Shown: positions 3,001 through 56,893, counted from the stretch's first letter. The stretch is DNA of 64,000 nucleotides from an uncultured cyanobacterium (GCA_963718615.1 OY970368.1:5216001-5280000), one strand, 5' to 3'. The notes: generated from the letters alone by a model not told the origin. Numbers and translations: made by a program.

Positions 3001-3344
3001 AAAACGCGATACAAGGATGCTGATGTGGCACCTCTACGTTTCCATTCAATTGGTTTCCCCAGCGAGTGGGGAGTTGGCAGTCACGCTCTGAGCCGCTACA
3101 CCAGCGGTTTTGTTGTTTCCATTCAATTGGTTTCCCCAGCGAGTGGGGAGAAAAACTTATACTCAATAAGTAATATCTTTTTACCATCACTAGTAGTTTC
3201 CATTCAATTGGTTTCCCCAGCGAGTGGGGAGGTGGTGGCAAGATGGCCAGAGAGATCGGGTGATTGAGTTTCCATTCAATTGGTTTCCCCAGCGAGTGGG
3301 GAGTAGTAGGTTTTGTGGATGTTTCCACCCGAACGATACGAAGT
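1..3344 (-). CRISPR. CRISPR array, leader-distal segment (1 partial + 44 full 36-bp repeats; continues beyond window start)
   Basis: Repeat GTTTCCATTCAATTGGTTTCCCCAGCGAGTGGGGAG with unique spacers of about 34-45 nt. The reverse complement ends in ATGGAAAC and has a 5' TCCCCA/TGGGGA hairpin, so transcription is inferred on minus. Counted by eye. Confidence 0.98.
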
Positions 3345-3513
3345 TGTTAGACGACAATAGCATTGGCGGCTGCTCGACATTTCCTGGCGGGAGTTGTCGC
3401 GAAAGCGTGGCTTGGATCGTGAGACAGACGTGAGACTTTGACAGCTCACTGGCGTGGCGATCGACAAAAAAAGACACTCATAGGGTCCCCCTGGAAAGAA
3501 AGGACTCTAACGA

Positions 3514-5304
3514 GTGTCGAGAGTAATAATGTATCAACAGCGAGTGTACATGAATGCAAAGGAGCATGGCCTGTCGCAGCAAGATGCGGCAGCGGTGGCG
3601 GAATTTTCGGTGCGAACCGCGCAACGAATGGATGCCAACGAGTGGCAGCAGGGGAGTGGAGAGGGCACCGGGGTGCGGACCCGGCCAGATCCACTCAACG
3701 GTCTTTGGGAAGCCGAACTAGAGGCGATGCTGCGAGCTGAGCCAAGACTGAAACCGACGACGTTATTTGAGCATTTGCAGGACAAATATCCGGGTCAATA
3801 TCCGCAAGTGCTCAGGACGCTTCAGCGGCGAGTGAGAACCTGGAAAGCACTGTATGGTCCAGCTCCCGAGGTGATGTTTGAGCTGCGTCACGAGCCGGGG
3901 GTGCAAGGATTTTCCGACTTCACCGAACTCAAAGGGACGGTGGTGACGATAAATGGAAAGCCCTATGAGCACTTGATTTATCACTACCGCTTGGGCTACA
4001 GCGGCTGGTCCTACGCGGAGTTAATCGAGGGGGGTGAAAGCTTTGTCGCCCTATCCGAAGGATTGCAGAATGCCCTGTTTGCCTGCGGCGGGGCTCCAAA
4101 GCAGCATCGCACCGATAGCCTGAGTGCGGCCTATCGAAATCTGGGTGGGAAGAAGACCAAACCGCTGACGCGCTTGTATGACGACCTGTGTGAGCACTAT
4201 CGGTTGCAACCGACGCGAAACAACCGGGGAATCGCCCACGAGAACGGTTCTATTGAAGGCCCCCACGGTCATCTGAAGAACCGCATTGTCCAAGCGATGT
4301 ACCTGCGCGGCAGCACCGACTTCGCTAGCGTCAGCGACTATCAAGACCTGCTCAATGACTGTGTGGCCAAGCTCAATGCCCAGCATCAGGATAAGTATGA
4401 GCATGAGAAAGCGCATCTCCAGGCGTTGCCCAAATACCGGGCTGCGGACTACGAACTCCTCACCGCTAAGGTGAGCAGCAACAGCACGATTGATATCCGC
4501 TGCATGCTCTACAGCGTGCCGTCTCGCTTAATTGGCCGGTCCCTGGAAGTGCATCTGCACCACAACCGCCTGATGGGCTACCTCGAAGGCCATGAAGTGT
4601 TCAGGTTGAAACGGATTCGTTCTACTGACAAGGACAAGCGGCGCGCCCGCTCGGTGGACTATCACCATGTCATCGAAGGGTTGCGCAAAAAGCCCTTGGC
4701 CTTCCTCCACAGCACCTGGCGAGAGGACCTCCTGCCCAATGAGCGCTATCACCAACTCTGGAAACAGCTCCAGGCTGGCTTTGAGCTTGATTCTGCCGCC
4801 GTGCTCATGGTCGAAGCCCTCTATATTGCGGCGACCCAAAACAAGGAAGCGGCGGTCGCTGACTACCTCTTCCCAGAGATTGAGGCCAAAACCCTCACCC
4901 TCTCAAGGCTCAGACTCCATTTTCAGTTGCTCACCAAACTCGAATTCCCCACCGTGAATGTCCAACAACATGACCTCAACGACTACGATGCCCTTCTGTT
5001 CACCCACAGCAGCGTCATCCCAGATGCAGAACCAGAGCTCGTCTCAACCGGAGCTGAGCCCTTACCAAAGCCTCAGCGCTCAGCTCAAGCACCTGCGCTT
5101 ATCCCATATGCTCAACCACTGGGAGACCTTGGAGCAGCAAGCCATGCGAGAGACCTGGTCCTACGCGCAATTTCTCTTGGCCCTGTGCCAACTCGAAACA
5201 GACCGCCGCAAGGCTTTGCGCCTCCAAAGAGCCATCACCGAAGCTCAACTGCCCAACGCCAAAACGGTTTCCAATTTCGATTGGACACACCTGCCCCTGG
5301 TTAA
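3514..5304 (+). CDS. istA: IS21 transposase IstA
   Basis: N-terminal HTH, integrase-like DDE core (SDFT, HRTDSL, HENGSIEG), YSVPSRLIG motif. Confidence 0.93.
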   Translation: MSRVIMYQQRVYMNAKEHGLSQQDAAAVAEFSVRTAQRMDANEWQQGSGEGTGVRTRPDPLNGLWEAELEAMLRAEPRLKPTTLFEHLQDKYPGQYPQVLRTLQRRVRTWKALYGPAPEVMFELRHEPGVQGFSDFTELKGTVVTINGKPYEHLIYHYRLGYSGWSYAELIEGGESFVALSEGLQNALFACGGAPKQHRTDSLSAAYRNLGGKKTKPLTRLYDDLCEHYRLQPTRNNRGIAHENGSIEGPHGHLKNRIVQAMYLRGSTDFASVSDYQDLLNDCVAKLNAQHQDKYEHEKAHLQALPKYRAADYELLTAKVSSNSTIDIRCMLYSVPSRLIGRSLEVHLHHNRLMGYLEGHEVFRLKRIRSTDKDKRRARSVDYHHVIEGLRKKPLAFLHSTWREDLLPNERYHQLWKQLQAGFELDSAAVLMVEALYIAATQNKEAAVADYLFPEIEAKTLTLSRLRLHFQLLTKLEFPTVNVQQHDLNDYDALLFTHSSVIPDAEPELVSTGAEPLPKPQRSAQAPALIPYAQPLGDLGAASHARDLVLRAISLGPVPTRNRPPQGFAPPKSHHRSSTAQRQNGFQFRLDTPAPG

Positions 5305-5872
5305 CCCTCTCCCGATTCAAAAACTCGCCACTGAACCCCAGTGGATTGATGACGCCCAAAACTGTCTCTTCTTCGGACCTTCTGGGGTCGGCAAAACCCA
5401 TCTGGCCGCTGGCATCGCTCGTGCCGCCCTGGAAGCGGGCAAGCGCGTCAAATTCTTCTGTGCCACCACCCTGGTGCAGTATCTCCAAAAAGAAAAGCTT
5501 CATCTCCAGCTTCAGCCTGCCCTGAAAAAGCTCGACCGCTTTGACCTCGTGATCATTGATGACCTCGGCTATGTCCAAAAATCCGAGGCAGAAACCTCCG
5601 TTCTCTTTGAACTCATTGCCTATCGCTATGAGCGCAAAAGCATCATGGTCACTGCCAATCAGCCGTTCAGTGAGTGGAACTCCATCTTTGGTGATTCCAT
5701 GATGACCGTCGCCGCCGTTGACCGCCTCATTCACCATGCGGTCATTCTCGAAATCAAGGCGGACAGTTTTCGTAAACGCTCCGCTCACCAGCGCTCTGAG
5801 AACTTGAAGGCACTCCCGGCAAAATCCTCTGAATCTGACTCCCAAACATCGACACACCAGAAGCGATCTTAG
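4958..5872 (+). CDS. istB: IS21 helper AAA+ ATPase IstB (true start may be downstream)
   Basis: Walker A GPSGVGKT, Walker B LVIIDDLG, AAVDRLIHH motif. Confidence 0.93.
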   Translation: MSNNMTSTTTMPFCSPTAASSQMQNQSSSQPELSPYQSLSAQLKHLRLSHMLNHWETLEQQAMRETWSYAQFLLALCQLETDRRKALRLQRAITEAQLPNAKTVSNFDWTHLPLVNPLPIQKLATEPQWIDDAQNCLFFGPSGVGKTHLAAGIARAALEAGKRVKFFCATTLVQYLQKEKLHLQLQPALKKLDRFDLVIIDDLGYVQKSEAETSVLFELIAYRYERKSIMVTANQPFSEWNSIFGDSMMTVAAVDRLIHHAVILEIKADSFRKRSAHQRSENLKALPAKSSESDSQTSTHQKRS

Positions 5873-5982
5873 ATTGTCGTCTTGACCTGAGATTGCCGCT
5901 TCTCATTTCCTTTTGCCAATTCAGTGGGCTCCCCGCCTTCTAATTGTCGCGACAGGCAAATGTCTTGACACTTGATAACGAA

Positions 5983-8420
5983 GTTTCCATTCAATTGGTT
6001 TCCCCAGCGAGTGGGGAGACGTAACCCAGAGAACGGATTAACAGAGGTAGATGCAGTTTCCATTCAATTGGTTTCCCCAGCGAGTGGGGAGTCGAAGCTT
6101 TCACGATCACGGGCGGCGGCATGGACAGCGGTTTCCATTCAATTGGTTTCCCCAGCGAGTGGGGAGCCGGGGCCGTCGTCGAAACCATCCAGGAGGACGC
6201 CTACGAAGTTTCCATTCAATTGGTTTCCCCAGCGAGTGGGGAGATCATAAACTTTCAGAAGGGCCAAAAAGTCATCGTTGATTTGGTTTCCATTCAATTG
6301 GTTTCCCCAGCGAGTGGGGAGGTAAATCAAGCCATGCTCGATGAAACGATGTCGTCCGGGTTTCCATTCAATTGGTTTCCCCAGCGAGTGGGGAGAGTTC
6401 ATGCGAAACAGCCACAACGCGCAAATCATTTGTGTTTCCATTCAATTGGTTTCCCCAGCGAGTGGGGAATTGAAAGCTAAGGGGATGTTACCGAGCAATT
6501 TCGCTCGGGATGGGTTTCCATTCAATTGGTTTCCCCAGCGAGTGGGGAGTGTTGCAATGGTACCGCTGCAACATCTGCCAACCACGACCGTGTTTCCATT
6601 CAATTGGTTTCCCCAGCGAGTGGGGAGTTTAGATAATTTTGTGAGGCTGAATAATGAAAGTATTGCCGGTTTCCATTCAATTGGTTTCCCCAGCGAGTGG
6701 GGAGCAAAATTGTGGATCCGGATTCTTTTGTTACGTCGAGGTTTCCATTCAATTGGTTTCCCCAGCGAGTGGGGAGAGCTAGTTAAGTTAATGGACTCGA
6801 TGTAAACACTAATACGTTTCCATTCAATTGGTTTCCCCAGCGAGTGGGGAGCTGATGGGTGATGACCGGGCGTTCCGGGCATTAGGATTGGTTTCCATTC
6901 AATTGGTTTCCCCAGCGAGTGGGGAGAGCTCAACAGTGCCGACGATCCGAGCCCCAGGTTACGACGTTTCCATTCAATTGGTTTCCCCAGCGAGTGGGGA
7001 GCCAGGGAAATACGTAGTTAAGGTTTCAGATACCACTAATCTAGTTTCCATTCAATTGGTTTCCCCAGCGAGTGGGGAGGTGACAGGTCCTCCCGCGCGG
7101 ATAGATCACCCAGTTCCAGGTTTCCATTCAATTGGTTTCCCCAGCGAGTGGGGAGTCAGCCCGATGGATACCTTAGTCAAAGCGCTGTATAGTTTCCATT
7201 CAATTGGTTTCCCCAGCGAGTGGGGAGAAAAAGGTAGAAGAGTTACAGGCGGCGCTAGACACAAGTTTCCATTCAATTGGTTTCCCCAGCGAGTGGGGAG
7301 TTAAAAGGAATATAGTTGTCGATGAGCCCACTACGAGTTTCCATTCAATTGGTTTCCCCAGCGAGTGGGGAGTTGATGTGTCGTTATCGCGCGCTAGCGC
7401 GGAGTACGTTTCCATTCAATTGGTTTCCCCAGCGAGTGGGGAGGTTTTACGCGGAGTTTCTTTCCGATACTTTAATGCCCCAGTTTCCATTCAATTGGTT
7501 TCCCCAGCGAGTGGGGAGGAACTAGTCTGTCTACTTGAACAAGCTCTAGTTCTAGAGTTTCCATTCAATTGGTTTCCCCAGCGAGTGGGGAGTGTTCAGC
7601 TTTCTTTAGTTGTAAGGAATTAGCTACAGTACGGTTTCCATTCAATTGGTTTCCCCAGCGAGTGGGGAGAAGCATTAACAGCCGGTAACCTATCCTCCCC
7701 GGTTCGTAGGTTTCCATTCAATTGGTTTCCCCAGCGAGTGGGGAGTTTAAATGCAGCCGTGGTAATAGCGTCAGAAAACCACTCTAAAGTTTCCATTCAA
7801 TTGGTTTCCCCAGCGAGTGGGGAGACGCCCGCTGCATCCGCTAAATCGGCTGTGTTCCAGCCGTGTTTCCATTCAATTGGTTTCCCCAGCGAGTGGGGAG
7901 CATTGCTTGTTGAGCTTCTGGATCTTCGTTGTGAACGTTTCCATTCAATTGGTTTCCCCAGCGAGTGGGGAGTAGATTATTATCAGCCACAAGAGAAACT
8001 GATGTTGTTTCTAGTTTCCATTCAATTGGTTTCCCCAGCGAGTGGGGAGATTTGCCATTGCCGCATTGCAGGCTGGCATACAGGGGCAAGTTTCCATTCA
8101 ATTGGTTTCCCCAGCGAGTGGGGAGCTGGGTGTAGATTACAACACATCTAACCTTCCTGAGGAGGTGTTTCCATTCAATTGGTTTCCCCAGCGAGTGGGG
8201 AGAAAAATGGTCTTTGGGGTGTCTGGACGGTCCCAGGAGGTTTCCATTCAATTGGTTTCCCCAGCGAGTGGGGAGCCCCAAAGCTTGATCAAGTTCGCAG
8301 CTCAACAGTGCCGGTTTCCATTCAATTGGTTTCCCCAGCGAGTGGGGAGTTAGAGGAGCCCCGGAGCTGTACGGAGAAGCCCTGGTTTCCATTCAATTGG
8401 TTTCCCCAGCGAGTGGGGAG
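5983..8420 (-). CRISPR. CRISPR array, leader-proximal segment (33 repeats, 32 spacers)
   Basis: Same 36-bp repeat from 5983 to 8420; one variant repeat at 6434-6469 ends in A instead of G. Confidence 0.98.
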
Positions 8421-8602
8421 CCCCCCCATTCTAGCCCCCTCTAGGCAAGGATTTCAAGCCCCCAGCGCGAGCCTCAAGCCGCCCAGAGCCAAAAGCCCCC
8501 CGCCCAAGCCCACAAAAAAGCCCAAAACCCTCACCCAGCATACCATCGAGCCTCCCAACGCAAAAACAACATCCCAGCCCCCTCCCCCCCAGCCTCGCAC
8601 CC
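8421..8602 (-). promoter_or_regulatory. CRISPR leader
   Basis: Non-coding segment between the cas2 stop and the first repeat, upstream of the array in the inferred orientation. Confidence 0.8.
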
Positions 8603-8881
8603 TCAAATCACAATCGACCCCGACGGCGAACTCAACGGCACCCCACCCCAAATCTCCACCTGATCCCGCGTATGACTCGACATCGGATAAAACCGCACCG
8701 AATCCTCCGGCAACTTCACATATCGCCCCAACTTTCGCTTCAATTCCTGATACTTTTTAGCCTCCAAACAACACTCAAAAACACTAAACTGCACCCGCCT
8801 GCCATAGCCCTCCAAAACATCAGCAACCTTCTTCCGACGACGATTACAAGAAACATCATAAACCACCACATACAACAACAT
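8603..8881 (-). CDS. cas2: CRISPR-associated Cas2
   Basis: YVVVYDVS...RRRKKVA...GRRVQFSVFEC...DSVRFYP. Confidence 0.97.
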   Translation of the reverse strand: MLLYVVVYDVSCNRRRKKVADVLEGYGRRVQFSVFECCLEAKKYQELKRKLGRYVKLPEDSVRFYPMSSHTRDQVEIWGGVPLSSPSGSIVI

Positions 8882-8893
8882 CAGTCCCACCCC

Positions 8894-9886
8894 CTAACGA
8901 ATTTGATAAGAGCGATAACTGCGGTGGTGATTCACCACACAATCCCGAAACACCTTCACCTGCTCATTCAACACCCCCCAACGCACCGACCTCACCCCCG
9001 GACTCACCTCAATCTCCTCCTCCATCCGCCGCACAAATGCCTGTAAATACTTACGCCGCCCCGACCCATTTAAGTAACATCCCCCCTCCGCCGACACCGT
9101 AAAATCATCCACCGCATCCATCATTCCGCGATTAATCAAATACAAAACCAACGAATCCACCACCGGAGCCCGAAACCCCTCCAACAAATCCGACGCCAAC
9201 GCCGCATGGCGCTCCGTCCCCTGATGCAAACAAGCCTCATAGGGATCCAAGCCCTGCATCTCAATCAAACACAGCAAATGGTTCCAGAGAATCTGATAGC
9301 CAAAACTCAGCATCGCATTCACCGGATTGCGCGGCGGACGCTTCGATCGCTCTCCAAAGACAAAATCCGGATGATCAAGACAAACATCCAACACCCCAAA
9401 ATAGGCCGAAGCCCCCGCCCCCTCATAGCCCATCAGCTCCGGAATCGACCTCGCCCGCAGCGCCTGATTACAAGCCATCTCCAACCGACTAATCGCCTCC
9501 ACCAACGCCTCCTGAGGCCGTCGTCGATGCTGCCGCTGCAAAACCGTCCGACTATTGCGCAACTTCGCAAACACCAACCGCTGAGCAATCTGCAACCGCC
9601 GTTCCGGGCTCAGCTCCCGCTGCAACCGCGCCAACTGCCGATAGCCCCGCGCCAGCGGCAACACCCGCCCATAGCAGCGCCCCGCCGACGAGAGATAGGC
9701 GATCGGCACATCCCGCTCCAAACAAGCACAAATCAACTGCGTCGTCAGCTGCGATTTCCCCAAAACCACAATTTGCTCAATCGACGGCAACGGAATCCGC
9801 TGGGCCTCATCGCCCTGCTTCAGCACCATCTGCTCCTGCTGAAGCGACAGATAGCAGCCATGCTGGGTAATATAGATAGTTTTCAT
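8894..9886 (-). CDS. cas1: CRISPR-associated integrase Cas1 (no RT or Cas4 fusion)
   Basis: LMGYEGAG, RSKRPPRNPVNAMLSFGY, LH, ALASDLLEGFRAPVVD; ATG at 9886 chosen as start. Confidence 0.97.
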   Translation of the reverse strand: MKTIYITQHGCYLSLQQEQMVLKQGDEAQRIPLPSIEQIVVLGKSQLTTQLICACLERDVPIAYLSSAGRCYGRVLPLARGYRQLARLQRELSPERRLQIAQRLVFAKLRNSRTVLQRQHRRRPQEALVEAISRLEMACNQALRARSIPELMGYEGAGASAYFGVLDVCLDHPDFVFGERSKRPPRNPVNAMLSFGYQILWNHLLCLIEMQGLDPYEACLHQGTERHAALASDLLEGFRAPVVDSLVLYLINRGMMDAVDDFTVSAEGGCYLNGSGRRKYLQAFVRRMEEEIEVSPGVRSVRWGVLNEQVKVFRDCVVNHHRSYRSYQIR

Positions 9887-9932
9887 AAACCTTAGACTGA
9901 GAGATCTTACCTTTCTCAATCAAGGCCAAAGC

Positions 9933-10196
9933 TCAAAAATCGGGAAAGGAAAATACTGACTTTTTGGAGCAATAGAACAGATTTTCTTCGACGCAATTGC
10001 AGACCGTAAAGCCGTGAAGGTATTGAGACAACAAGTGCTCCCTGAGCCAACGGTGAAACTGACGGAATAGAGTTGTATCATCCATTTCCCCCCGGTTGTA
10101 GATCACACGGATGGGGCGATCGCTCAATACAGCCAGCAGGGCCTCATAGCCTTCCCAGCTCGTATCATAGAGCATCAGTCGCTCCGTCTCTGGCAT
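9933..10196 (-). pseudogene. Internally deleted Uma2/DUF820-family endonuclease remnant
   Basis: N-terminus SWEGYEALL...RVIYNRGE resembles the Uma2 start and joins directly to a C-terminal-like DDTTLFRQFHRWLRE; nuclease core absent. Confidence 0.65.
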
Positions 10197-10252
10197 TCAG
10201 TACCGTTTTACCTGAGGACTGAGGAGTATGGTTGGATAATTTTATGAGTAGG

Positions 10253-11734
10253 TTAGAGTTGAGCGATCGCCTCTTTTAACTCTCGATGGATCTCAGCCAT
10301 AAAACTTGCTGCTTCTAAGGAATCAAACGATTGCCCCGTCACAAAATTCAAACAAGACAACACACAACTTTGCCAATCAGCCTCATTCTCCGTCTTCCAA
10401 GCCCGAAAAACCTCCTCCTTCTGTAAACCCTCAATTGTATGAAACGCACTATTACGCTGATCTTTTGCCTCCTCCCATACAATTTGGATCTTGCCATGAG
10501 TCTTCCAATTGGTTTTCTCTTGTCTTAGTAACTCGTATAAAGGGTCACCAAATAATCCGATATTTCCATACCTCTCAAGTTTCTTCTGATTGGGCTCTGA
10601 CAATTCAGTTTTATAGTTATCGAAGACCGTCAAAATTGAATCCTTTAACTGCAATCCAAATCTAGGATGTTCTTGGATGTGGTTACTATATTCACTTTTT
10701 GCCCAAGCCAGAATTGTTCCCTCTAACCCCCGAAAGCTATGGAATAAAGCTTCTACTGTGTTTTCCTGCTGTAACCGGACCCAAGCTAGATAAGCTGACT
10801 CATATCCCAACCGCCACCAAGGAAATGAATTCTTTGCAATCACATTGCCCTTCACGAGCTTATTCTTAAACTTATGAAACTCTGCATGATTCCACTCGAT
10901 CGCCGCATCTAGCAGCACCTTGATCCGCTTTTCCTTGGATTCCCTCGTATCTAAATACCGCCCCAATAACCGCTCTATCCCCGAATAGTCATAGCGTTCG
11001 AGCAGAGCCTTCACCTCCTGCAACCGCAATGCACTCAAATAAGTAGAACCCTCAATCACCCTAGTACGATCGGGCCGATACTCATTACTCACTAAAAACT
11101 CAACGCGATCTTCAAATTTCGCCAAACAAGAAAACTGAACCGCTGACGAAATAGCTGGAGTCCCCGCCTGATGACTCACAAATACCTTCTGTGGCTCCAC
11201 CTCAAACTTCAGCATCCCAATCTCCCGACGAACCACCTTCAACACCGCATCCCAATCATCTAGCCCCTCATCCAAAGAATCCGGAAACAAAACCAACTGC
11301 GAGATCTTCGCCGCTGGTAATAATGACTGCAAATACTGAGACACGATCGGATATAACAAGCAAGTATCCTGCCAATAAGGACAGCGATAGCTTTCTCGGC
11401 TCTCCTCCTCAAAAATATTACTTTGGTCACTCGTCAACACGACAATTTGATTAATCGATTCCGTCGGCAGCTTTTCACAGAATTCCTTCAAGAGTGGAAA
11501 TTCTAACTGTGGCTTTACCTCTTCTTCTAGTTCTTGATACGCAAGCCCCAGAACCCTAGATGCTATCCGATAAGGAACTCCATCATCATCGTCTGTACGA
11601 CTTGGCTCAAATCGTTTACGTTCGATATTGTAAATCGATCGCTTTATCTGTCGATGCCAATCCGGCCAGACATCCGCATCTCGAATTTGAACATCACTAC
11701 TTCCCAGCGTTACGAGCCATAGAGCCATGAGCAT
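10253..11734 (-). CDS. csm6: Csm6-like CARF-helical-HEPN ancillary ribonuclease
   Basis: CARF-like motifs LVTLGSSD, LTSDQ, VSHQAGTPAIS; helical LLERYDYSG; HEPN R-x4-H motif RNSAFH; directly after cmr6. Confidence 0.7.
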   Translation of the reverse strand: MLMALWLVTLGSSDVQIRDADVWPDWHRQIKRSIYNIERKRFEPSRTDDDDGVPYRIASRVLGLAYQELEEEVKPQLEFPLLKEFCEKLPTESINQIVVLTSDQSNIFEEESRESYRCPYWQDTCLLYPIVSQYLQSLLPAAKISQLVLFPDSLDEGLDDWDAVLKVVRREIGMLKFEVEPQKVFVSHQAGTPAISSAVQFSCLAKFEDRVEFLVSNEYRPDRTRVIEGSTYLSALRLQEVKALLERYDYSGIERLLGRYLDTRESKEKRIKVLLDAAIEWNHAEFHKFKNKLVKGNVIAKNSFPWWRLGYESAYLAWVRLQQENTVEALFHSFRGLEGTILAWAKSEYSNHIQEHPRFGLQLKDSILTVFDNYKTELSEPNQKKLERYGNIGLFGDPLYELLRQEKTNWKTHGKIQIVWEEAKDQRNSAFHTIEGLQKEEVFRAWKTENEADWQSCVLSCLNFVTGQSFDSLEAASFMAEIHRELKEAIAQL

Positions 11735-11737
11735 CCT

Positions 11738-13405
11738 CTACCAAAGTTGTTTAAAGTCTGTTTCTTGATCTAAAAACTTGAGGAAATTCTGTACAGTTTG
11801 CTGCTGTTCAGTCCCCTGGACATGGGGAAACATCGTCAACAGCTCCACATATTGCCCAGTCTCCCGCCAAATATTCTTACCCTCAGCAGTCTTTCTAATC
11901 TGAAATCGCGGATACATGCGATGCCAAAGTCGGCCTATTTTCCCCATCTCTCCAGTTAAGTCTGATTTTTTAATCGTCTTCTCTCGGGCATAATTTCTAT
12001 GCAACCAGTCGATTGCCACACTGTCCAATTCATCCTCCGCAATCCTCCCCCAAACTTGGACATTCCCCTTTCGCCAAGCTTCTCGGATTCCAGCCTGTGG
12101 TTGACCTGGATTCTGTAACCACGAAAACTCAGCCCCTTTCTGTACAAAAACATCTAAGAACTTAGTAATACCCGTCATCTCATCGTTCCCCGGTGAAATA
12201 TAAAACGGGTGCGATCGCTTTAGAAACTCCCAGTGACATCCAATCATCTGGTCCTTGTAGTTAGGACAAAACAATCGATGGTCCGCCCGTCGCCAAGATT
12301 TACCAAACCCCCCCAGCAACATTGCAAATTTCATTAGCCGCATAACAAAAGCCTTTAAATCATCCTGCTGAGCCTGGGTCAGGTTCAATCGCATGAGCAA
12401 AATATCCAGCCTCGCATCTCCTGTTTCATAGATTGGGGCAATATTTTTCGGATTGGTTTCGCTCTTCCACCAATCCACCTCTAAAGCAGGTGCATTAAAG
12501 GCGATACCTAATAGCCCCACTGTCGCCTCTTCCCCCTTACCAATTCCACCCCAAAGGAGTTTCGTCATCCGCTCAGCCGTTGCTTCATCCGTAATTCCGC
12601 TAAATAATCGTCGCGTATGTCCACGCAAAGTCGCTTTGAACAAATTAGGTCGAAACTCACCATCGGCGTAGCGATCGATCTGCCGAGAAGCCATGCCCTG
12701 ACCCGATAGACCAAAACCAACAAGTTTATTTTCCGTATGGGTTGCGATCTGTCCATAGCCAGCACTTACCCGAGAACCAATACCTTGCTCTAGCGCTACT
12801 TGCCAGATATCCCAGACTGTTTTCCATTGTTCTTGAGAGAGCTCTTTTGTACTAGAAATACCAAAGACGAACATAGGCTTGTAGAGAGAAATCTGGATAA
12901 AAGCACCATTGCTTTTCTCTCCATCAAGCTGCCAATTTTCCTGGGGATGAACAATATCCACCAGAGAATTCTTTAACCATTCAGTATTTTTGGGATAGCC
13001 TCCATGAAAGCGCAAACAACCGGGATGTAAATCTCCATCGTTCCCCTCACCACCGCAAAATTCTAAGACTTCGCTGGGTGAACAAAGACGTTTACAGGCC
13101 CGCAAAAAAGCTCCCTTCATGCTAGATCCTGGGAAAAAGGCCCAACCACGCTCCCCAATCACTGGACGGATGACACCTACATCCTGCCCACTATTCGTTA
13201 CCATGCGCCAGGGAAAGCGATAGGTTCGTGTTTGAATATGGGGATCAAACTGCGGTACTTGACTAATATCACAGGCTTCTTGCCATTGTTTTGCCCAGTC
13301 ATAGGCTTGTTGCCGATTAGCCTTTGGAATCAATCGTTGAATCTGCGATCGCCCCTCAACCTGGGCCTGAAACATTAAAGGTACTCGCTCATACTCTGAT
13401 GGCAT
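11738..13405 (-). CDS. cmr6: Cmr6-Cmr1 fusion RAMP protein (type III-B variant)
   Basis: Two RAMP units: FPGSSMKGAF...DIVHPQ...GIGSRVSAGYG (Cmr6-like), then FRPNLFKATLR...LLGGFGKSWRR (Cmr1-like). Confidence 0.85.
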   Translation of the reverse strand: MPSEYERVPLMFQAQVEGRSQIQRLIPKANRQQAYDWAKQWQEACDISQVPQFDPHIQTRTYRFPWRMVTNSGQDVGVIRPVIGERGWAFFPGSSMKGAFLRACKRLCSPSEVLEFCGGEGNDGDLHPGCLRFHGGYPKNTEWLKNSLVDIVHPQENWQLDGEKSNGAFIQISLYKPMFVFGISSTKELSQEQWKTVWDIWQVALEQGIGSRVSAGYGQIATHTENKLVGFGLSGQGMASRQIDRYADGEFRPNLFKATLRGHTRRLFSGITDEATAERMTKLLWGGIGKGEEATVGLLGIAFNAPALEVDWWKSETNPKNIAPIYETGDARLDILLMRLNLTQAQQDDLKAFVMRLMKFAMLLGGFGKSWRRADHRLFCPNYKDQMIGCHWEFLKRSHPFYISPGNDEMTGITKFLDVFVQKGAEFSWLQNPGQPQAGIREAWRKGNVQVWGRIAEDELDSVAIDWLHRNYAREKTIKKSDLTGEMGKIGRLWHRMYPRFQIRKTAEGKNIWRETGQYVELLTMFPHVQGTEQQQTVQNFLKFLDQETDFKQLW

Positions 13406-13827
13406 TACTTTTTCTCCTTACTCTTTGGTTTTTTGTAACGCTGCGTCCACCAAACTAAGCTGTCACATAATTCAATTAAAATCGCTAAAGCAACCTTACG
13501 CTGCTCAATATCAAAACCCCAGAGCTTTTCAGACATTGCTTTGATTGAACTCGTATCTTTGAGATTTATCTTTTCATTCGGCAGTTTTATGCCTGCCTGC
13601 TTCATGATCTTGCACAGTTCATCCCAGGTCGCCTTCCAAAACTCCGACTTCGCCTGCTCTTCATCTTTCTTGCTCTGGGCCAGTCGCAAATGCTCACCCC
13701 AAAAGCGCTCTAAGCCATAGGGCGTCGTCATTCGCATTTTATGACTTTCACCCAAAACCTCGCGATCGCGAAACTTCAGCACCAAATCATGGGCTACACG
13801 ATCAATCTCATACATTTGCCAACTCAT
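13405..13827 (-). CDS. cmr5: Type III-B small subunit Cmr5 (Cas11)
   Basis: About 140-aa helical protein between cmr4 and cmr6, ATGA overlap with cmr4 stop; call rests mainly on position. Confidence 0.7.
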   Translation of the reverse strand: MSWQMYEIDRVAHDLVLKFRDREVLGESHKMRMTTPYGLERFWGEHLRLAQSKKDEEQAKSEFWKATWDELCKIMKQAGIKLPNEKINLKDTSSIKAMSEKLWGFDIEQRKVALAILIELCDSLVWWTQRYKKPKSKEKK

Positions 13828-14651
13828 GCTGCTACTCCTGCGCCCTTTAGCGTGATCATGCAATTTCCAAAGCCGATTGACTCCAAACCTCCCAGATAAA
13901 TCTCACCACTCTGATTCTTAGCTCCAAAAGGCTGCCAGGATTTCGAAGTATCTCTGGTTTCACGAATCGCGATCGGGAACACCATGATCGTTCCTTCCGG
14001 CAGTGCTTCCGTATTAAAAAAGCCCCCACCATCTACCCGTTTCTCCTCGTCTAGCAATCGCACCCGACTTTGACGATAGAGCGCCATGTCATGAATCATC
14101 CCAATTTCATCATCCCCAACCACCACTGCTGGTAGTTCTTCTCCATCAGGGAACCATGCCTTCAAATTCTCAGTTTTCTTCAGCTCTAAAAAGCCAAAGT
14201 TGAAAAACAGTTTTTTCTTATTCTCAACATTCATAGTCTTGAGTGTTGACGAGCCTGTATATGCCTTAGGGACAGTTGCCGCTTTCATCTCACCACCGAC
14301 AATACGCTGGTATCGTTTCAACAGCTTTGGTGAACTCACCCAAACCACCGGCTGCCCAGGGCAAAACACCGGCAACCATACCACAGAAGCATACTCAAAC
14401 TTGACGACTGATTCCGTTGTAGAATTCGACTCTCCGGTTTCTGCAGGTGCACCGTACCAGTGGTTGACATCACCTTCATCCTGTCGCATTTCCGATCGAA
14501 ATCGACCCCGAATCGAGCTACCTGGAATAATCCCCGTTTGGGTAAACTGATCGCGAAAAATTAAATTTAGGTTACCGCTTTCTTCCCCCGCTGTTGCACC
14601 CACATGCAGTGGTGCAAGGGCTTCAATAATGCCATAAGCGCGTTTGTACAT
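13824..14651 (-). CDS. cmr4: Cmr4 (Cas7 backbone RAMP)
   Basis: PLHVGA...IIPGSSIRGRFR, FFNTEALPEGT, YLGGLESIGFG. Confidence 0.92.
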   Translation of the reverse strand: MYKRAYGIIEALAPLHVGATAGEESGNLNLIFRDQFTQTGIIPGSSIRGRFRSEMRQDEGDVNHWYGAPAETGESNSTTESVVKFEYASVVWLPVFCPGQPVVWVSSPKLLKRYQRIVGGEMKAATVPKAYTGSSTLKTMNVENKKKLFFNFGFLELKKTENLKAWFPDGEELPAVVVGDDEIGMIHDMALYRQSRVRLLDEEKRVDGGGFFNTEALPEGTIMVFPIAIRETRDTSKSWQPFGAKNQSGEIYLGGLESIGFGNCMITLKGAGVAA

Positions 14652-14663
14652 GTTCCTTTCTCC

Positions 14664-15692
14664 TTATGTAAGACCTTGAATTGCCACCGGAAGGCACAAA
14701 CCACAGCCCAAATGCTTGAGCGGAAACCCCTCCCGAGGAAACCACTCCTCCGGAAATTCCCACCATGTTTTGTCTAAGGGTTCCTTCAGCGCATACACCG
14801 TCCCCGCTGGAACACCATAGCGCCCTCGCCCCAATCTTCCTCGCTCTGTCGCTCGATGCCCAATCCGATAACGAAACGGCACGGGCTTATCCGTTAACGT
14901 TTGCATACCACCACGCGGAAATGCTTCATGCTTCGGATAGCGATAGGACAAGTTCTTAGAACCCCATACTCCCGGCGTAATCAGGGCAAATGCCTTCTGG
15001 ATTTTGGTATTCAGCAACTTGTTAATTTTGCTTTCCGGCGCGATCGCTTGACTGCTAATCTCCACCATATGCCCCTCCCCTCCAAAGCGATACCACCCAT
15101 CAGGGATTGCATGGGTAGATAGATACACCAGGCAACTATCCTCATCCATCTGCACTGCACTTTCTAGAAATAAACCATCTTGTTCCAAAACATGACGCTG
15201 TTCCTGTTGCATTTGAGGATGTAGAAACGTCAGAGGTAGCCAAGGAACTTTCTCCGCTGATTCCTTACGAATTTGCCGGGTTGATTGACTCCAAGAATCA
15301 ATTCGCTGCCAGCGATACTCTGCCTCTAGCTCTTGCTTTTTAGGATCTGAATCGCGCTGCCACTTGCGCCGCTCATCCAGTCGCCACTCATCCTCATCCC
15401 CCTGGGCGATAATACGATGTCTGGGAATTGGCACATAAAACGATTCTGCATCTTCCAAAGACTTCGCCCAAAATGGCCCAGCGACATGGAGCTGATACTT
15501 CAGCGTTTCATGGTCAGCAATCTCCATCTGCTTATTCGCTCCAAAAAATAGGCCCGCTAACGTTGCCGCATCTGGAGGAAACTTCGCACCCGACCGCCCG
15601 ACTAAGTTATCCGGTGATAGAAAAGCACCTGCACTGCCATATAGCAGTCCCAAGGGCATCACCGTAATCAAATATTTGAACATAGTTGCCAT
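14664..15692 (-). CDS. cmr3: Cmr3 (Cas5 family)
   Basis: FPPDAATLAG, GPF, RFGGEGH, LITPG, VPAGTVY, terminal G-rich loop. Confidence 0.92.
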   Translation of the reverse strand: MATMFKYLITVMPLGLLYGSAGAFLSPDNLVGRSGAKFPPDAATLAGLFFGANKQMEIADHETLKYQLHVAGPFWAKSLEDAESFYVPIPRHRIIAQGDEDEWRLDERRKWQRDSDPKKQELEAEYRWQRIDSWSQSTRQIRKESAEKVPWLPLTFLHPQMQQEQRHVLEQDGLFLESAVQMDEDSCLVYLSTHAIPDGWYRFGGEGHMVEISSQAIAPESKINKLLNTKIQKAFALITPGVWGSKNLSYRYPKHEAFPRGGMQTLTDKPVPFRYRIGHRATERGRLGRGRYGVPAGTVYALKEPLDKTWWEFPEEWFPREGFPLKHLGCGLCLPVAIQGLT

Positions 15693-17218
15693 CCCACTTG
15701 GACTAAATCATCCACCCACTGCACAATCGCGGCATCCTCACTGTCTCCCACTACCGCCGACAATCTAGGAATTTCCTGTTTCCATCCTTCAAAATACAAA
15801 TCCAGCATCGATTCTGCCAAGGCACGATCGACCGAGCATTTGCCGACATCTTGAAAGCGAATGGCGTGACGGAACTTCAAATAAGCCCAGTCCTTATACA
15901 AATGGGTCCAATTACGACTGTCATCTCGTCCACTATAGCGATCGAGAACTTTCAAGCAATCCCAGGGACAGGTCCATTGCACATACTGGCCACTATTAAA
16001 TACCACTCGAATCGTGATGCGATCGCGCCCCTTTAGTTTCGAAAGCTTTTCTGCTTCTCGACAATGCTGAAGAATATCCCGCTGTGGTACTCGATTGGCT
16101 GCCCAGACAAAACCCATACTGACATTGATTTTCTGTTTATGGGTTTTCCATTGTTGTTTAAATTGCTTAAGCCATGTAAATACTTCTTTAACCAAATCTT
16201 GTGTCGTTAAATCGTTGTTATAAATAACTCCAAGAAAATCATCACCCCCCGCATAAATTACCCGTCCAAAACTCTTAGGGAACGATGATTTAAAGTCTTG
16301 CCCCCAGGCTCGCATCGCATGACTAAACGCCTCCTGTGCCGTATTATCATTTCCGATCGCCTTCAGCATCGCTCCCACTTGATCCCCATCTCCCATAAAC
16401 CAACCGGTCCAGTTTCCTGTTTCCCGATTAATTTCCGTAAACCCTTCATCTAACTCCTTCAATCCAATTTTTTTCGCGAGTGGCGCATATGTAATTAAAC
16501 GCTTAGCTAATTCTGGAATACTTAATCGTTCATTGGCAGCAATAAACTTGCCTTCGATGGCTCGCTCGTCTACCGGCGTGTCTTCGGCACGATGTTGACT
16601 TGGATTATCGAGAACCCAAGCTAATTGGCGGTAGAAAGTCTTGAGTTCCTGGGCTTCCTGCGAATTCAGCGATCGACCTGGCTCCGAGTTAAAAGCCCCC
16701 AAACCATGCCAAGCGATCGCATCCGTTCCTGTCAGACTCGAACTTTCCCCAATCCAGTTCACCCCCACCCAGTCCCGTCTTAACTTGCGTTGCTCTAAAT
16801 CCACCATGGCAGCATTTGGAGAACAACCCTGTCCCCAAAACACCTCCCAACTATAGCGGTGGCACTTTTCCCATTCCTGCTGCCAACAAAAAGCGTCTAC
16901 GGGAAAATCAAGCTGTTGTTCCAGCCATTTTTGACAGTTGATAAGAATATCACGCCAAGCTGCCGTCAAAGTATTGCTAACAACATTACGGTTGAGATCG
17001 CCCATAACCAAAATCCGGTTTGGCATTCCCTCTTGCACATGAATTAATGCCGGAGAAATGACTCGACAACCATCAATCTCATCAATTGCTTGCGCAATCT
17101 TCTGACTCAAATACGACAGAATCAACGAAGCCCCGTATAGATCCCGCAACTTCCGCGATTTCTCAATAAAGCCCTGCACCGGAGCAAAGCTAATGGCAGT
17201 ATAGACAACAGACGACAT
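15668..17218 (-). CDS. cmr2: Cas10/Cmr2 large subunit, HD-less, GGDD intact
   Basis: Begins at ISFAPVQGFIEKSRKLRDLYGASLILSYL; MPNR; MGDGDQVG; VIYAGGDDFLG. Confidence 0.95.
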   Translation of the reverse strand: MSSVVYTAISFAPVQGFIEKSRKLRDLYGASLILSYLSQKIAQAIDEIDGCRVISPALIHVQEGMPNRILVMGDLNRNVVSNTLTAAWRDILINCQKWLEQQLDFPVDAFCWQQEWEKCHRYSWEVFWGQGCSPNAAMVDLEQRKLRRDWVGVNWIGESSSLTGTDAIAWHGLGAFNSEPGRSLNSQEAQELKTFYRQLAWVLDNPSQHRAEDTPVDERAIEGKFIAANERLSIPELAKRLITYAPLAKKIGLKELDEGFTEINRETGNWTGWFMGDGDQVGAMLKAIGNDNTAQEAFSHAMRAWGQDFKSSFPKSFGRVIYAGGDDFLGVIYNNDLTTQDLVKEVFTWLKQFKQQWKTHKQKINVSMGFVWAANRVPQRDILQHCREAEKLSKLKGRDRITIRVVFNSGQYVQWTCPWDCLKVLDRYSGRDDSRNWTHLYKDWAYLKFRHAIRFQDVGKCSVDRALAESMLDLYFEGWKQEIPRLSAVVGDSEDAAIVQWVDDLVQVGWQLCSNI

Positions 17219-17414
17219 TAGTAATCGTACCCAGTCACTACGAGTAATCTCTGAACACAGAGTAACAGTAGTCACCAGCATCAGGCTAGAGAAAAGACAA
17301 TATTCTTAAAATAAGTCTAACTTACTCAAAAACTTACTTTACAGGACATTCAACTCCTATACTCTAAAACATTATTATTGCCTTTTCCAAATCTGGAAAA
17401 CCTATCTGGAAACC

Positions 17415-18614
17415 ATGCCACGACCGCCGGAGCTCCATCCCCATAGCGATCGCCCCGCCTTCACCCGCCTAATGTTGCTCATTGCTACATTAGTCCAGTA
17501 TCCCGGCATCGGCTGCCCAGACCCAGACCCCCTTTCAAACTCAAAACAGCATCACAATGCCCTGGCACTAGTGCGCGATCGCCTCCTACAACTCGCCGCA
17601 GAACTCAAACTCGATCTCCCCGCCTACTCCGTCCCCATCCTGCGCAAAGACCTCGAAACCCTACGAGACTATGGCATCCTAGAACAGCGGATGTACCGCT
17701 GGGGCTACTATTTAGGAACCGGAGCATTAAACCGCGAGGAACTGGCTGCGGCCCTCACCGCCTTGGCCACCCAGGCGAAAATCCAGGGCGATCCACAACT
17801 GCGTTCTATGTACCAACAACTTGAGCGTCGACTGCGAGGCTTGTACCCCACATCAGACCCAGCATCAGCCCAAACGTTGGTCTATCCCATTCGCTCCCAA
17901 TTGGATCAGCTCATTATCCATACCGACCCAGAAGAACTGCGGCGCTTGGGCCATTACCAAGAAACCCTCTTTGATCACTTAGAACAGGTGGAGCAGGCGA
18001 TCGCCCAAGGCCAAGCCCTAGCGTTGTATCAGCGAAGTACACCCTACAGCAGCGGCTCCCTTGGTCCCTATCAGGTTTTTCCGCTTCAGTTGCTCTACCA
18101 TGAAATCGCTTGGTATCTGCTCTATGAGGAATGTGAAACAGAGCATTTAGCGATCCGGCGACTCGATCGGTTATCAGCTCAGATTCAGCTCCTTCAGGGC
18201 GTGACGCGATCGCAGATGGAGCAACTCGCCAGCTTAAAGTTGGCCAAGCGACTGTTGCACGATGGCTGGGGATTGTTTTTAGGGAAACCAGAACCACAGC
18301 GCCTAGAGCGCTTAGGGCAGGCGGAGTTCCGGTTGGTCAAGGTTCGTTTTTTTGAGCAAGTGGTGCAGTTTATTGTGGAGGGGGAACGGCGGCATCCCAA
18401 ACAGCGGATTCGGCTAGGACCAAAGGATGAGGCAGGGCGATTGTTGTTTGTGGATTATGAGGTGATGTTGCCGGAGCGATCGCTCCCAGAATTCTTTCGT
18501 TGGGTCAATCGTTTTTTTGAACAGGCCCAAGTTTTAGCCCCAGCAGATTGGGTAGAACAATATCGTAAAAACCTAGAAGTTATGGGACAACATTACGGGC
18601 CTATGTCAGGATAA
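17415..18614 (+). CDS. WYL-domain transcriptional regulator divergent from the cas operon
   Basis: N-terminal HTH (ILRKDLETLRDYG); WYL core VFPLQLLYHEIAWYLLY...RRLDRL; WCX-like tail QVLAP. Confidence 0.9.
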   Translation: MPRPPELHPHSDRPAFTRLMLLIATLVQYPGIGCPDPDPLSNSKQHHNALALVRDRLLQLAAELKLDLPAYSVPILRKDLETLRDYGILEQRMYRWGYYLGTGALNREELAAALTALATQAKIQGDPQLRSMYQQLERRLRGLYPTSDPASAQTLVYPIRSQLDQLIIHTDPEELRRLGHYQETLFDHLEQVEQAIAQGQALALYQRSTPYSSGSLGPYQVFPLQLLYHEIAWYLLYEECETEHLAIRRLDRLSAQIQLLQGVTRSQMEQLASLKLAKRLLHDGWGLFLGKPEPQRLERLGQAEFRLVKVRFFEQVVQFIVEGERRHPKQRIRLGPKDEAGRLLFVDYEVMLPERSLPEFFRWVNRFFEQAQVLAPADWVEQYRKNLEVMGQHYGPMSG

Positions 18615-32263: not shown

Positions 32264-32486
32264 TGACTCGTTAACGTTAATGATGACAAACTCAGATCTT
32301 GCACTGAAGCGATTTATTTATTTACTGACCGTCTTTAACTTAATTCAATTGTAATTCATAAATTCTATGCTCAAGCAAAAGTATCAAGTGTCAAGACATT
32401 TGCCTGTCGCGACAATTAGAAGGCGGGGAGCCCACTGAATTGGCAAAAGGAAATGAGAAGCGGCAATCTCAGGTCAAGACGACAAT

Positions 32487-33401
32487 CTAAGATCGCTTCT
32501 GGTGTGTCGATGTTTGGGAGTCAGATTCAGAGGATTTTGCCGGGAGTGCCTTCAAGTTCTCAGAGCGCTGGTGAGCGGAGCGTTTACGAAAACTGTCCGC
32601 CTTGATTTCGAGAATGACCGCATGGTGAATGAGGCGGTCAACGGCGGCGACGGTCATCATGGAATCACCAAAGATGGAGTTCCACTCACTGAACGGCTGA
32701 TTGGCAGTGACCATGATGCTTTTGCGCTCATAGCGATAGGCAATGAGTTCAAAGAGAACGGAGGTTTCTGCCTCGGATTTTTGGACATAGCCGAGGTCAT
32801 CAATGATCACGAGGTCAAAGCGGTCGAGCTTTTTCAGGGCAGGCTGAAGCTGGAGATGAAGCTTTTCTTTTTGGAGATACTGCACCAGGGTGGTGGCACA
32901 GAAGAATTTGACGCGCTTGCCCGCTTCCAGGGCGGCACGAGCGATGCCAGCGGCCAGATGGGTTTTGCCGACCCCAGAAGGTCCGAAGAAGAGACAGTTT
33001 TGGGCGTCATCAATCCACTGGGGTTCAGTGGCGAGTTTTTGAATCGGGAGAGGGTTAACCAGGGGCAGGTGTGTCCAATCGAAATTGGAAACCGTTTTGG
33101 CGTTGGGCAGTTGAGCTTCGGTGATGGCTCTTTGGAGGCGCAAAGCCTTGCGGCGGTCTGTTTCGAGTTGGCACAGGGCCAAGAGAAATTGCGCGTAGGA
33201 CCAGGTCTCTCGCATGGCTTGCTGCTCCAAGGTCTCCCAGTGGTTGAGCATATGGGATAAGCGCAGGTGCTTGAGCTGAGCGCTGAGGCTTTGGTAAGGG
33301 CTCAGCTCCGGTTGAGACGAGCTCTGGTTCTGCATCTGGGATGACGCTGCTGTGGGTGAACAGAAGGGCATCGTAGTCGTTGAGGTCATGTTGTTGGACA
33401 T
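32487..33401 (-). CDS. istB: IS21 helper ATPase IstB
   Basis: Protein identical to copy 1. Confidence 0.93.
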   Translation of the reverse strand: MSNNMTSTTTMPFCSPTAASSQMQNQSSSQPELSPYQSLSAQLKHLRLSHMLNHWETLEQQAMRETWSYAQFLLALCQLETDRRKALRLQRAITEAQLPNAKTVSNFDWTHLPLVNPLPIQKLATEPQWIDDAQNCLFFGPSGVGKTHLAAGIARAALEAGKRVKFFCATTLVQYLQKEKLHLQLQPALKKLDRFDLVIIDDLGYVQKSEAETSVLFELIAYRYERKSIMVTANQPFSEWNSIFGDSMMTVAAVDRLIHHAVILEIKADSFRKRSAHQRSENLKALPAKSSESDSQTSTHQKRS

Positions 33402-34845: not shown

Positions 34846-35059
34846 TCGTTAGAGTCCTTTCTTTCCAGGGGGACCCTATGAGTGTCTTTTTTTGTCGATC
34901 GCCACGCCAGTGAGCTGTCAAAGTCTCACGTCTGTCTCACGATCCAAGCCACGCTTTCGCGACAACTCCCGCCAGGAAATGTCGAGCAGCCGCCAATGCT
35001 ATTGTCGTCTAACACAAAAGTATCAGTCAGATATGTAGTAAGACATATTTTCAAACCCA

Positions 35060-53474: not shown

Positions 53475-53478
53475 ATTT

Positions 53479-56400: not shown

Positions 56401-56877
56401 GACTATCACCTGGGGCAAGTGCTGTACACCGGTAAGGATTTTGTCATCATCGATTTTGAAGGAGAACCGGCTCGGCCTTTAAGTGAGCGGCGGATGAAGC
56501 GATCGCCCCTACGGGATGTTGCGGGTATGCTGCAATCGTTTTACTACGCCAGCCAAATGGCTCTCCGTAGAGAAGTTGAAACAGGGCTGATTCGCGATGA
56601 AAATTTGCCGTTGATGGAGCAATGGACGCGCTTTTTCTATACTTGGTCTAGTGCTGCGTTCCTCAAGGAATATCTGGCCACAGCAAAGGACGCAGAAACT
56701 GCCTTTTTACCTAAGACGACTCCAGAACTACAGATTCTTCTGGATGCCTATTTGTTAGAAAAGGCGGTGTACGAACTCAGTTATGAACTTAATAACCGAC
56801 CCACATGGGCTGGGATTCCGATGCAGCGTATTTTGGAGTTGCTGGAAGCTGTAAAAATGACCTATTGGCAGCTCTAG
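53479..56877 (+). CDS. treS: Trehalose synthase-maltokinase fusion (TreS-Mak/Pep2)
   Basis: [23 protein letters not shown]; C-terminal [22 protein letters not shown]. Confidence 0.95.
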
Positions 56878-56893
56878 ATAGGGTTGAGACCTA

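Follow-up and report, generated by a model that had tools for sequence, protein, structure and literature searches.

Here we describe a type III-B CRISPR-Cas locus in a 64,000-nucleotide stretch of the genome of an uncultured cyanobacterium (GCA_963718615.1, OY970368.1:5216001-5280000; the whole stretch is called the window hereafter, and positions are counted from its first letter). The locus is complete and lies within the first 18.6 kb of the window, with genes at 8603-17281 and all cas genes on the minus strand. It is a member of the described cyanobacterial III-Bv lineage and not a new system. Judging from its sequence, it belongs to a widespread sub-branch whose Cmr effector complex appears to have lost both of its own nucleases. 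Because the complex is without the residues that normally cut RNA and DNA, it probably just makes an alarm signal. The reading that we favor, with some confidence though short of a firm conclusion, is a sensor-only Cmr complex that binds its target RNA without slicing it, has no DNase, and whose sole output would be cyclic oligoadenylate that activates a CARF-HEPN RNase.

The cmr4 gene (13824-14651, minus strand, 275 amino acids) encodes the Cas7 backbone subunit, and its product passes the equivalog cut-off of NCBIfam TIGR02580 (91.7 bits, cut-off 87 bits). Residues 14-34 (P14-D34; 14550-14612, minus strand) read PLHVGATAGEESGNLNLIFRD. The stretch from His16 to Arg33 contains no Asp, and the place of the catalytic Asp is taken by Asn29 (codon at 14565-14567). 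Four methods put Asn29 in the catalytic column. With phmmer, Asn29 is opposite the loop Asp of Pyrococcus furiosus Cmr4 (4rdp) and of 6s6b_D, labelled Cmr-beta, and, with the N-terminal 55 residues, opposite the Asp of the Staphylococcus epidermidis Csm3 loop (GAIDsPVVRD). In a MAFFT alignment of 99 Cmr4 sequences drawn from a scan of 1.84 billion representatives, the Asn29 column holds an acidic residue in all 79 canonical rows (76 Asp and 3 Glu). An hhalign comparison of 12 III-Bv-type with 30 canonical sequences (probability 100%, E-value 2e-48) also sets N29 on the column of the invariant Asp. Canonical III-B complexes use this loop Asp to cut target RNA with a periodicity of 6 nucleotides. 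The catalytic Asp coordinates Mg2+ and has been described as common to all type III active sites (PMC11026444). In P. furiosus Cmr4, the D26A mutation abolishes cleavage (PMC4333402), and D26N abolishes target cleavage while binding is kept and Cas10 is still activated (PMC4762429).

A first-pass annotation of this DNA had reported that Cmr4 lacks an Asp between the His and the conserved Arg, and had named D26 as the loop residue with which canonical Cmr4 cuts; both statements agree with the alignments and the mutants described above. It had also considered the Asp that follows the Arg as a replacement acid, which is a weak candidate. We rejected this residue (Asp34) as a substitute catalytic residue, as it aligns with P. 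furiosus E32, and the E32A mutant cuts normally (PMC4333402).

Asn29 is detected in all 120 Cmr4 homologues at 59-91% identity among the matches listed. Mean identity is 97.7% for residues 12-52 versus 77.0% for residues 53-275, and no other part of the protein is as conserved as the loop. We examined 37 related loci, from cyanobacterial genomes and one plasmid; the N-terminus of Cmr4 is cut off in one of them (L037), and the 36 loci that include it all encode Asn29. Every named record with Asn29 is cyanobacterial (among them Leptolyngbya, Phormidesmis, Microcoleus, Nostoc, Anabaena, Planktothrix and Pseudanabaena), and the unusual residues do not vary among genera from several cyanobacterial orders. 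By this comparison of sequences, Asn29 is conserved in the clade and is not a sign of decay.

In a quick IQ-TREE phylogeny of 98 Cmr4 sequences, for which the loop columns meant for removal may not match exactly after re-alignment, all 18 acid-less sequences fall on one side of a branch with an SH-aLRT support of 99, and the 79 canonical sequences on the opposite side. The acid-less side includes the Cmr4 encoded on plasmid pSYSA of Synechocystis and also holds an N-truncated fragment (P0135). It comprises the branch of the window, the Synechocystis branch and a long-branched pair (P0176 and P0198). This pair forms a third group of Asp-less Cmr4-like proteins, in which the loop reads RGN-NNPI[YF]RLP. 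In the five Synechocystis-type loci that were fetched, Cmr4 reads EGNL[LM]GIARE, again with no Asp. Since Synechocystis-type loci are on the same Asp-less side, the loss of the Asp is old and common to the experimental model as well. The columns that match the Sulfolobus islandicus assembly residues K46/K50, E199 and glycines are invariant as R48, R50, E215 and G254/255/260/262, and the best PDB matches to the AlphaFold2 (AF2) model of Cmr4 are Cmr4 chains (TMq 0.61-0.71), indicating that Cmr4 is an intact backbone subunit.

The other Cas7-like subunit does not seem to replace the lost site. The gene at 11738-13405 (minus strand) encodes a 555-amino acid Cmr6-like protein with two RAMP domains, putatively of the Cmr1-Cmr6 fusion type, which matches the PADLOC Cmr6 model end to end (PDLC01212, 1e-195) and is 21% identical to the 649-amino acid protein of Synechocystis. 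Its AF2 model (predicted local distance difference test score, pLDDT, 75) has modest TM scores to Cas7-2x double-Cas7, Cmr1 (TMt 0.49-0.54) and Cmr6 chains. In the hhalign alignment, Arg80 falls in the column of the Cmr4 catalytic Asp, and the invariant Asp75 of the GQD motif lies five columns before it. We therefore rejected Cmr1-6 as a substitute slicer with a canonical site, given that Arg80 holds the catalytic column. A TNSGQD motif (residues 70-81) is invariant among the Cmr1-6 proteins of this branch.

The cas10 (cmr2) gene (15668-17281, minus strand) encodes a protein of 537 amino acids when read from the first ATG, with matches to Pfam Cmr2_N (1.1e-10) and Palm2 (1.5e-15) and to PADLOC Cas10b (PDLC02051, 3.8e-203). 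Alignments to homologues and to the PADLOC model begin at residues 17-27, and the probable start is Met22 (17218), which gives 516 amino acids. In a Cas10 profile built from 17 clade members, position 9 aligns with residue 241 of full-length P. furiosus Cmr2 (4w8y_A, 888 amino acids) and with residue 46 of 3ung_C, a construct that its depositors named Cmr2dHD. The protein thus begins at Palm1 and the HD domain, which Cas10 carries in many but not all III-B systems, is absent; just 134 nucleotides separate the open reading frame from a divergent WYL gene. We did not find an HD dipeptide, a CxxC or a CxC motif anywhere in the 537 amino acids. The 30 clade proteins have only four conserved Cys columns (95, 386, 417 and 513 in the 516-amino acid numbering), which are scattered and do not form a CxxC. 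The sequence GESSSLTG (16727-16750), which contains the SSLTG that the first-pass annotation read at the zinc-finger position, is part of a region (residues 150-260) with no alignment to any solved Cas10, whether a single sequence or the clade profile was used.

Synechocystis-type Cas10 proteins are 979-1061 amino acids long, and among the five examined, WGLLHDP is present at the N-terminus of four, GGDD in all five and CxxC in none. As these proteins mostly have WGLLHDP but never CxxC, the loss of the HD domain is specific to the branch of the window, whereas the loss of CxxC is shared. One locus, on a plasmid of Microcystis aeruginosa NIES-2481 (L048, 3724-6720), encodes a full-length Cas10 of 998 amino acids without WGLLHDP, and its HD site may be degenerate.

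The cyclase motifs of Cas10 are intact (GGDD at 16238-16249 in Palm2, and GDGD at 16382-16393). Of 33 related Cas10 pieces, 32 have both motifs, the exception being a C-terminal fragment of 118 amino acids, and 141 of the 516 positions are near-invariant among 30 full-length clade sequences. The gene at 10253-11734 (minus strand) encodes a CARF-HEPN RNase of the Csx1/Csm6 type (493 amino acids), with matches to PADLOC PDLC01795 'CARF_HEPN' (6.3e-135, spanning residues 3-493) and Csx1 PDLC01508 (1e-99). We found no match for this protein in the PDB by sequence. Its HEPN motif RNSAFH (R427-N428-x3-H432), which fits the R-x4-6-H active site of this family, is encoded at 10439-10456, and the R, N and H are kept in all 19 full-length homologues. 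A CARF-HEPN gene is located downstream of cmr1-6 on the same strand in all 30 related loci with room for it (25 of the same type as in the window, four PDLC01808 and one PDLC01806). Seven further loci are uninformative, five because they end too early and two (L028 and L032) because BLAST showed no cmr1-6. Two of the loci (L022 and L027) carry the different CARF-HEPN family PDLC01808, roughly 620 amino acids long. In these two loci, a large open reading frame that contains Cas1 replaces the plain Cas1 (L022 16397-18397 and L027 16275-18017); the one in L022, which alone was scanned, has Pfam reverse transcriptase and Cas1 domains. The first-pass annotation had described a Cas10 of about 516 amino acids starting at the Palm region without an HD domain, an intact GGDD and a CARF-HEPN protein, all of which are borne out by these searches. 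Its proposal of a signalling-only complex stands in part: the signatures of both nucleases are absent and the cyclase motifs and the CARF-HEPN gene are retained, but the loss of cleavage is deduced from sequence, and two Glu residues discussed below are possible substitutes for the Asp.

In the mechanism that we propose, CRISPR RNAs (crRNAs) would be transcribed from the minus strand and, as in Synechocystis CRISPR3, cut within the AU-rich 3' half of the repeat by RNase E of the host, and would then load into a Cas10-Cmr3-Cmr4(n)-Cmr5(n)-Cmr1/6 complex. Pairing with an invader transcript would activate Cas10, which is predicted from its motifs to make cyclic oligoadenylate, and this messenger would turn on the CARF-HEPN RNase, leading to RNA degradation and stalling of the infected cell. 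The complex itself would neither slice the bound target nor act as a DNase, and the signal would thus have to be ended by other means. These may be release of the target or its breakdown through RNases of the cell or of the HEPN type, degradation of the messenger by the CARF domain itself, or a Csx3/Crn3 protein encoded elsewhere.

The genome does encode such a protein, and the first-pass statement that the system has no visible off-switch does not hold for the genome as a whole. A protein of 637 amino acids with a Csx3/Crn3 ring-nuclease domain (TIGR02579, 84.3 bits versus a cut-off of 55.4) is encoded 4.2 Mb from the locus (L039, own genome C1:1009544-1012765, open reading frame 877-2790, minus strand). 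Its N-terminal part is ATPase-like by eye, and weak matches of the TPR type in the C-terminal part are below the cut-off. The adjoining gene is caspase-like by eye. The gene of the Csx3/Crn3 protein is far from both this locus and the second type III locus of the genome, described below. Homologues of the Csx3-ATPase protein were not found in the flanks of loci L001-L038. The CRISPR3 module of Synechocystis also has a Csx3-AAA gene, and Csm6-type proteins can break down their own activator through their CARF domains (PMC9676260). Finally, III-Bv has been reported to fire only when at least four bases of the 13-14-nucleotide handle are unpaired (PMC6546366), a requirement that may add safety.

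Several observations weigh against a sensor-only complex. Among the matches listed, all 120 close Cmr4 homologues have Glu24 and 119 have Glu23, and a Glu on the same flexible loop could bind Mg2+; the extreme conservation of the loop might also be expected of an active site. In S. islandicus, RNase-dead Cmr4 causes autoimmunity (PMC9368842), and a naturally dead Cmr4 therefore needs an unexplained safeguard. Both the cyclase activity and the messenger are predicted purely from motifs. In two loci, from Planktothrix paucivesiculata (L028) and Iningainema tapete (L032), the clade cmr3 and cmr4 are present, but BLAST detected cmr1-6 in neither locus and also failed to detect cas10 in L028, even though there is further sequence downstream; these loci may be rearranged or very divergent. 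The same genome also has another Cmr operon, a paralogue that is likewise HD-less and Asp-less (L045, own genome C1:2176000-2195900, genes at 8142-14072 and array at 14672-17994). Its Cmr4 carries the same loop as that of the window, but the array directly follows cmr1-6 and the operon has no CARF-HEPN gene of its own. It may share the CARF-HEPN effector of the window in trans. The repeat of this second locus differs from that of the window and ends in GTTGGAAAC, and no cas1 or cas2 was seen in the fetched stretch.

The most serious alternative, to which we give a limited chance, is that Cmr4 still slices with a moved active site in which Glu23 and Glu24 (GEESGN) bind the metal. The complex would then have the normal built-in timer and would merely be HD-less like other III-B complexes. 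The conservation of both residues and of the loop as a whole fits this explanation. In addition, one Glu (E23) is invariant across the 12-sequence III-Bv-type alignment, which covers both III-Bv branches, and its column holds an acid in just 8 of 79 canonical Cmr4 sequences, so that the Glu is more frequent in proteins that lack the Asp. The loop (residues 19-30) has pLDDT values below 50 in the AF2 model, and for this reason neither its geometry nor the reach of Glu23/24 to the scissile phosphate can be judged from the model. However, P. furiosus Cmr4 (g-t-e-l-g) and S. epidermidis Csm3 (GGESS) both have a Glu at the aligned position in addition to the catalytic Asp, and mutants of the latter protein behave like the P. 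furiosus D26 mutants. Despite its aligned Glu, P. furiosus Cmr4 no longer cleaves as D26A or D26N (PMC4333402, PMC4762429). The third Asp-less branch (P0176 and P0198) is without a Glu in the Glu23 column.

Rather improbable, in our view, is an inert complex for which cutting of the target still serves as the timer, with a non-Cas nuclease (RNase E, RNase J or the activated HEPN RNase) releasing Cas10. In its favor, III-Bv needs RNase E and RNase J for crRNA maturation (PMC12464536), no Cas6 domain (PF01881) was found in the genome, and type VII pairs an inactive Cas7 with a recruited nuclease (PMC12669027). On the other hand, the operon shows no conserved gene that would encode a recruited nuclease, and a link of RNase E to the target RNA is conjectural.

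The CRISPR array is located downstream of cas2 and consists of 77 repeats of 36 nucleotides from 8420 down to 69 (0 matches expected by chance). Of these repeats, 76 are identical and the remaining one, in the cas2-proximal part, has one mismatch. The array is in two parts on the minus strand, one adjoining cas2 (5983-8420, 33 repeats) and one distal (69-3303, 44 repeats). They are split by an IS21-family element of 2,633 bp (3345-5977, plus strand), inserted between the repeats at 3268-3303 and 5983-6018, which encodes istA (3514-5304) and istB (4958-5872) and matches Pfam IstB (4.6e-66) and the Mu-transposase C-terminal domain. A second copy of this element is located at 32382-35014 and is 99.96% identical to the copy in the array; the two near-identical copies point to recent transposition. 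The strand of the crRNAs is the minus strand, an orientation based on homology to the Synechocystis CRISPR3 repeat, with which the repeat can be aligned, and on its fold. As minus-strand RNA, the repeat forms a stem that spans positions 2-18, with an AU-rich tail after it (.((((((.....)))))).; -10.8 kcal/mol, z -2.7). The CRISPR3 repeat has a stem-loop at the same positions and then a single-stranded AU-rich tail that is cut by RNase E (PMC12464536). With its 77 repeats, 76 of them identical, and with cas1 and cas2, the system looks live.

A megablast search of the array (1-8420) against 50,697 phage records returned no match, which says little since megablast needs exact words of 28 nucleotides and cyanophage coverage is poor. 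The absence of a match, and a complex that binds without apparent means of cutting as judged from its residues, would fit a crRNA-guided RNA-binding regulator of host or plasmid transcripts that is not, or not only, defensive and for which signalling is secondary. This explanation is very unlikely, as it must account for cas1-cas2, for an array of 77 repeats with diverse spacers and for the CARF-HEPN effector conserved alongside, and the blank spacer search is weak evidence for it. A decaying, non-functional remnant, which the IS21 element in the array and the loss of the canonical catalytic residues might suggest, is the least probable of all and already close to refuted, considering that every gene is intact, the repeats are nearly uniform, the unusual residues are invariant across genera and Cas10 retains its 141 near-invariant positions.

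The locus encodes all of the type III-B subunits Cmr3, Cmr4, Cmr5 and Cmr6, based on family calls with Pfam, NCBIfam and PADLOC models. The genes for Cmr3 (Cas5; 14664-15692, minus strand, 342 amino acids; Pfam PF09700, 1.1e-8) and for the small subunit Cmr5 (Cas11; 13405-13863, minus strand, 152 amino acids; PADLOC PDLC01476, 3.4e-61) flank cmr4. The alignment of Cmr5 to the PADLOC model begins at residue 13, and its true start is probably an internal Met. The adaptation genes are cas1 (8894-9919, minus strand, 341 amino acids; Pfam PF01867, 1.6e-87) and cas2 (8603-8890, minus strand, 95 amino acids; Pfam PF09827, 4.9e-24). Between cas1 and the CARF-HEPN gene, where relatives carry csx18, there is an open reading frame of 87 amino acids (9933-10196, minus strand). 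It has no Pfam or NCBIfam family and no BLASTP alignment to the Leptolyngbya boryana Csx18 found at that place, and on these grounds we rejected it as Csx18. Upstream of cas10, a divergent gene (17415-18614, plus strand) encodes a WYL/WCX protein (Pfam WYL, 1.4e-4, and WCX, 5e-4; PADLOC 'WYL/Csx1' PDLC01036, 2.7e-38), which is a probable transcription regulator of the locus and is found in the same divergent position in 13 of 29 related loci.

The hallmarks of III-Bv are a Cmr1-Cmr6 fusion, the absence of Cas6 and crRNA maturation via RNase E and RNase J (PMC6546367 and PMC12464536). We found no cas6 in the locus and no match to PF01881, the sole Cas6 family searched, across the complete 6.1-Mb genome. 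Elsewhere in the window, several alpha-glucan genes lie in a row (51501-60960). They encode a maltosyltransferase resembling GlgE, two amylase/CBM48 enzymes and another amylase-family protein, which has an N-terminal maltokinase cap domain and may be a TreS-Mak fusion. This region looks like a GlgE-type pathway cluster.

What is already known includes the III-Bv subtype, PADLOC models of the proteins, an HD-less III-B Cas10 in a solved complex and Asp-less Cas7 proteins elsewhere. The suggestion in the first-pass annotation that the mechanism is undescribed has to be narrowed accordingly, as the locus falls in a described lineage and Asp-less Cas7 has already been noted for III-G, III-H and type VII (PMC12669027). 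In a literature search that did not cover Behler et al. 2018, supplements or the Makarova 2025 data files, we found no description of a III-B clade without the Asp and the HD domain yet with a cyclase and CARF-HEPN. Likewise, outside Behler et al. 2018 and supplements, we found no statement that the Cmr4 of III-Bv or Synechocystis CRISPR3 lacks the Asp, and Scholz 2013 contains no occurrence of Cmr4, HD domain, Cmr6 or sll7087.

In current models, slicing of the target RNA by Cas7 is the clock that turns Cas10 off. If our reading is correct, a large natural clade that is Asp-less, and in the branch of the window also HD-less but with the cyclase and a CARF-HEPN effector retained, would show that signalling is sufficient for type III immunity, and would force the question of how a signalling-only system stays safe and gets switched off. 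Synechocystis CRISPR3, an established genetic model, allows a direct test of this question. Type III-based RNA detection could also profit from natural sensors that do not cut, provided that the signal increases when the target is occupied for longer.

One of the closest known systems is CRISPR3 of Synechocystis sp. PCC 6803 (pSYSA, III-Bv; Behler et al. 2018, cited in PMC12464536 and PMC6546367). It has the same effector gene order as the window (cas10-cmr3-cmr4-cmr5-cmr1/6), cas1-cas2 but no cas6, and homologous repeats of 36 nucleotides with a stem at 2-18 and an AU-rich tail. Its Cmr4 falls with that of the window on the Asp-less side of the branch (SH-aLRT 99) and reads GNLLGIARE with no Asp, and its Cas10, like that of the window, has no CxxC. 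However, the two Cmr4 proteins are just 32% identical, and the Synechocystis Cas10 has 979 amino acids with an N-terminal WGLLHDP (HD kept), in contrast to about 516 amino acids and no HD domain in the window. The branch of the window also differs in that a CARF-HEPN gene is fused into the operon, and csx18, annotated at CRISPR3 beside cas1-cas2, was not found in the window locus with Pfam, NCBIfam and BLASTP. A wider reading, on which we would not insist and which has perhaps one chance among several, is that the whole III-Bv superclade, including Synechocystis CRISPR3, has lost Cas7 slicing, and that the HD-less branch has become a pure RNA sensor with maturation and timer outsourced to RNase E/J and ring nucleases. 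If true, this would be a type III immune system without a nuclease of its own in the effector complex.

The best PDB match to the Cas10 clade profile is 9arw (E-value 5.8e-24), deposited as 'guideless DtCmr Type III CRISPR complex'. Its Cas10 (612 amino acids) also starts at Palm1, with profile position 9 on residue 25, and carries GGED rather than the GGDD of the window; the AF2 model of the window Cmr4 has some of its best structural matches in the Cmr4 chains of this complex. A literature search for 'DtCmr' returned just unrelated papers and none on the 9arw complex. The engineered P. furiosus D26N variant has the same residue, Asn, in the catalytic column as the window Cmr4, and it binds the target and activates Cas10 (PMC4762429). 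However, P. furiosus D26N and D26A and S. islandicus dCmr4-alpha are laboratory mutants of HD-bearing complexes, whereas the state in the window is fixed in a natural clade, and dCmr4-alpha is toxic to its host (PMC9368842). Subtypes III-G and III-H and type VII also have Cas7 proteins without conserved catalytic aspartates (Makarova et al. 2025, PMC12669027). In III-G and III-H, the HD domain is kept, seems active and is predicted to cut DNA (PMC12669027), while the window locus has no HD domain. Type VII cuts RNA by Cas14 (PMC12669027), whereas the complex of the window has no added nuclease and keeps its cyclase motifs together with a CARF-HEPN effector.

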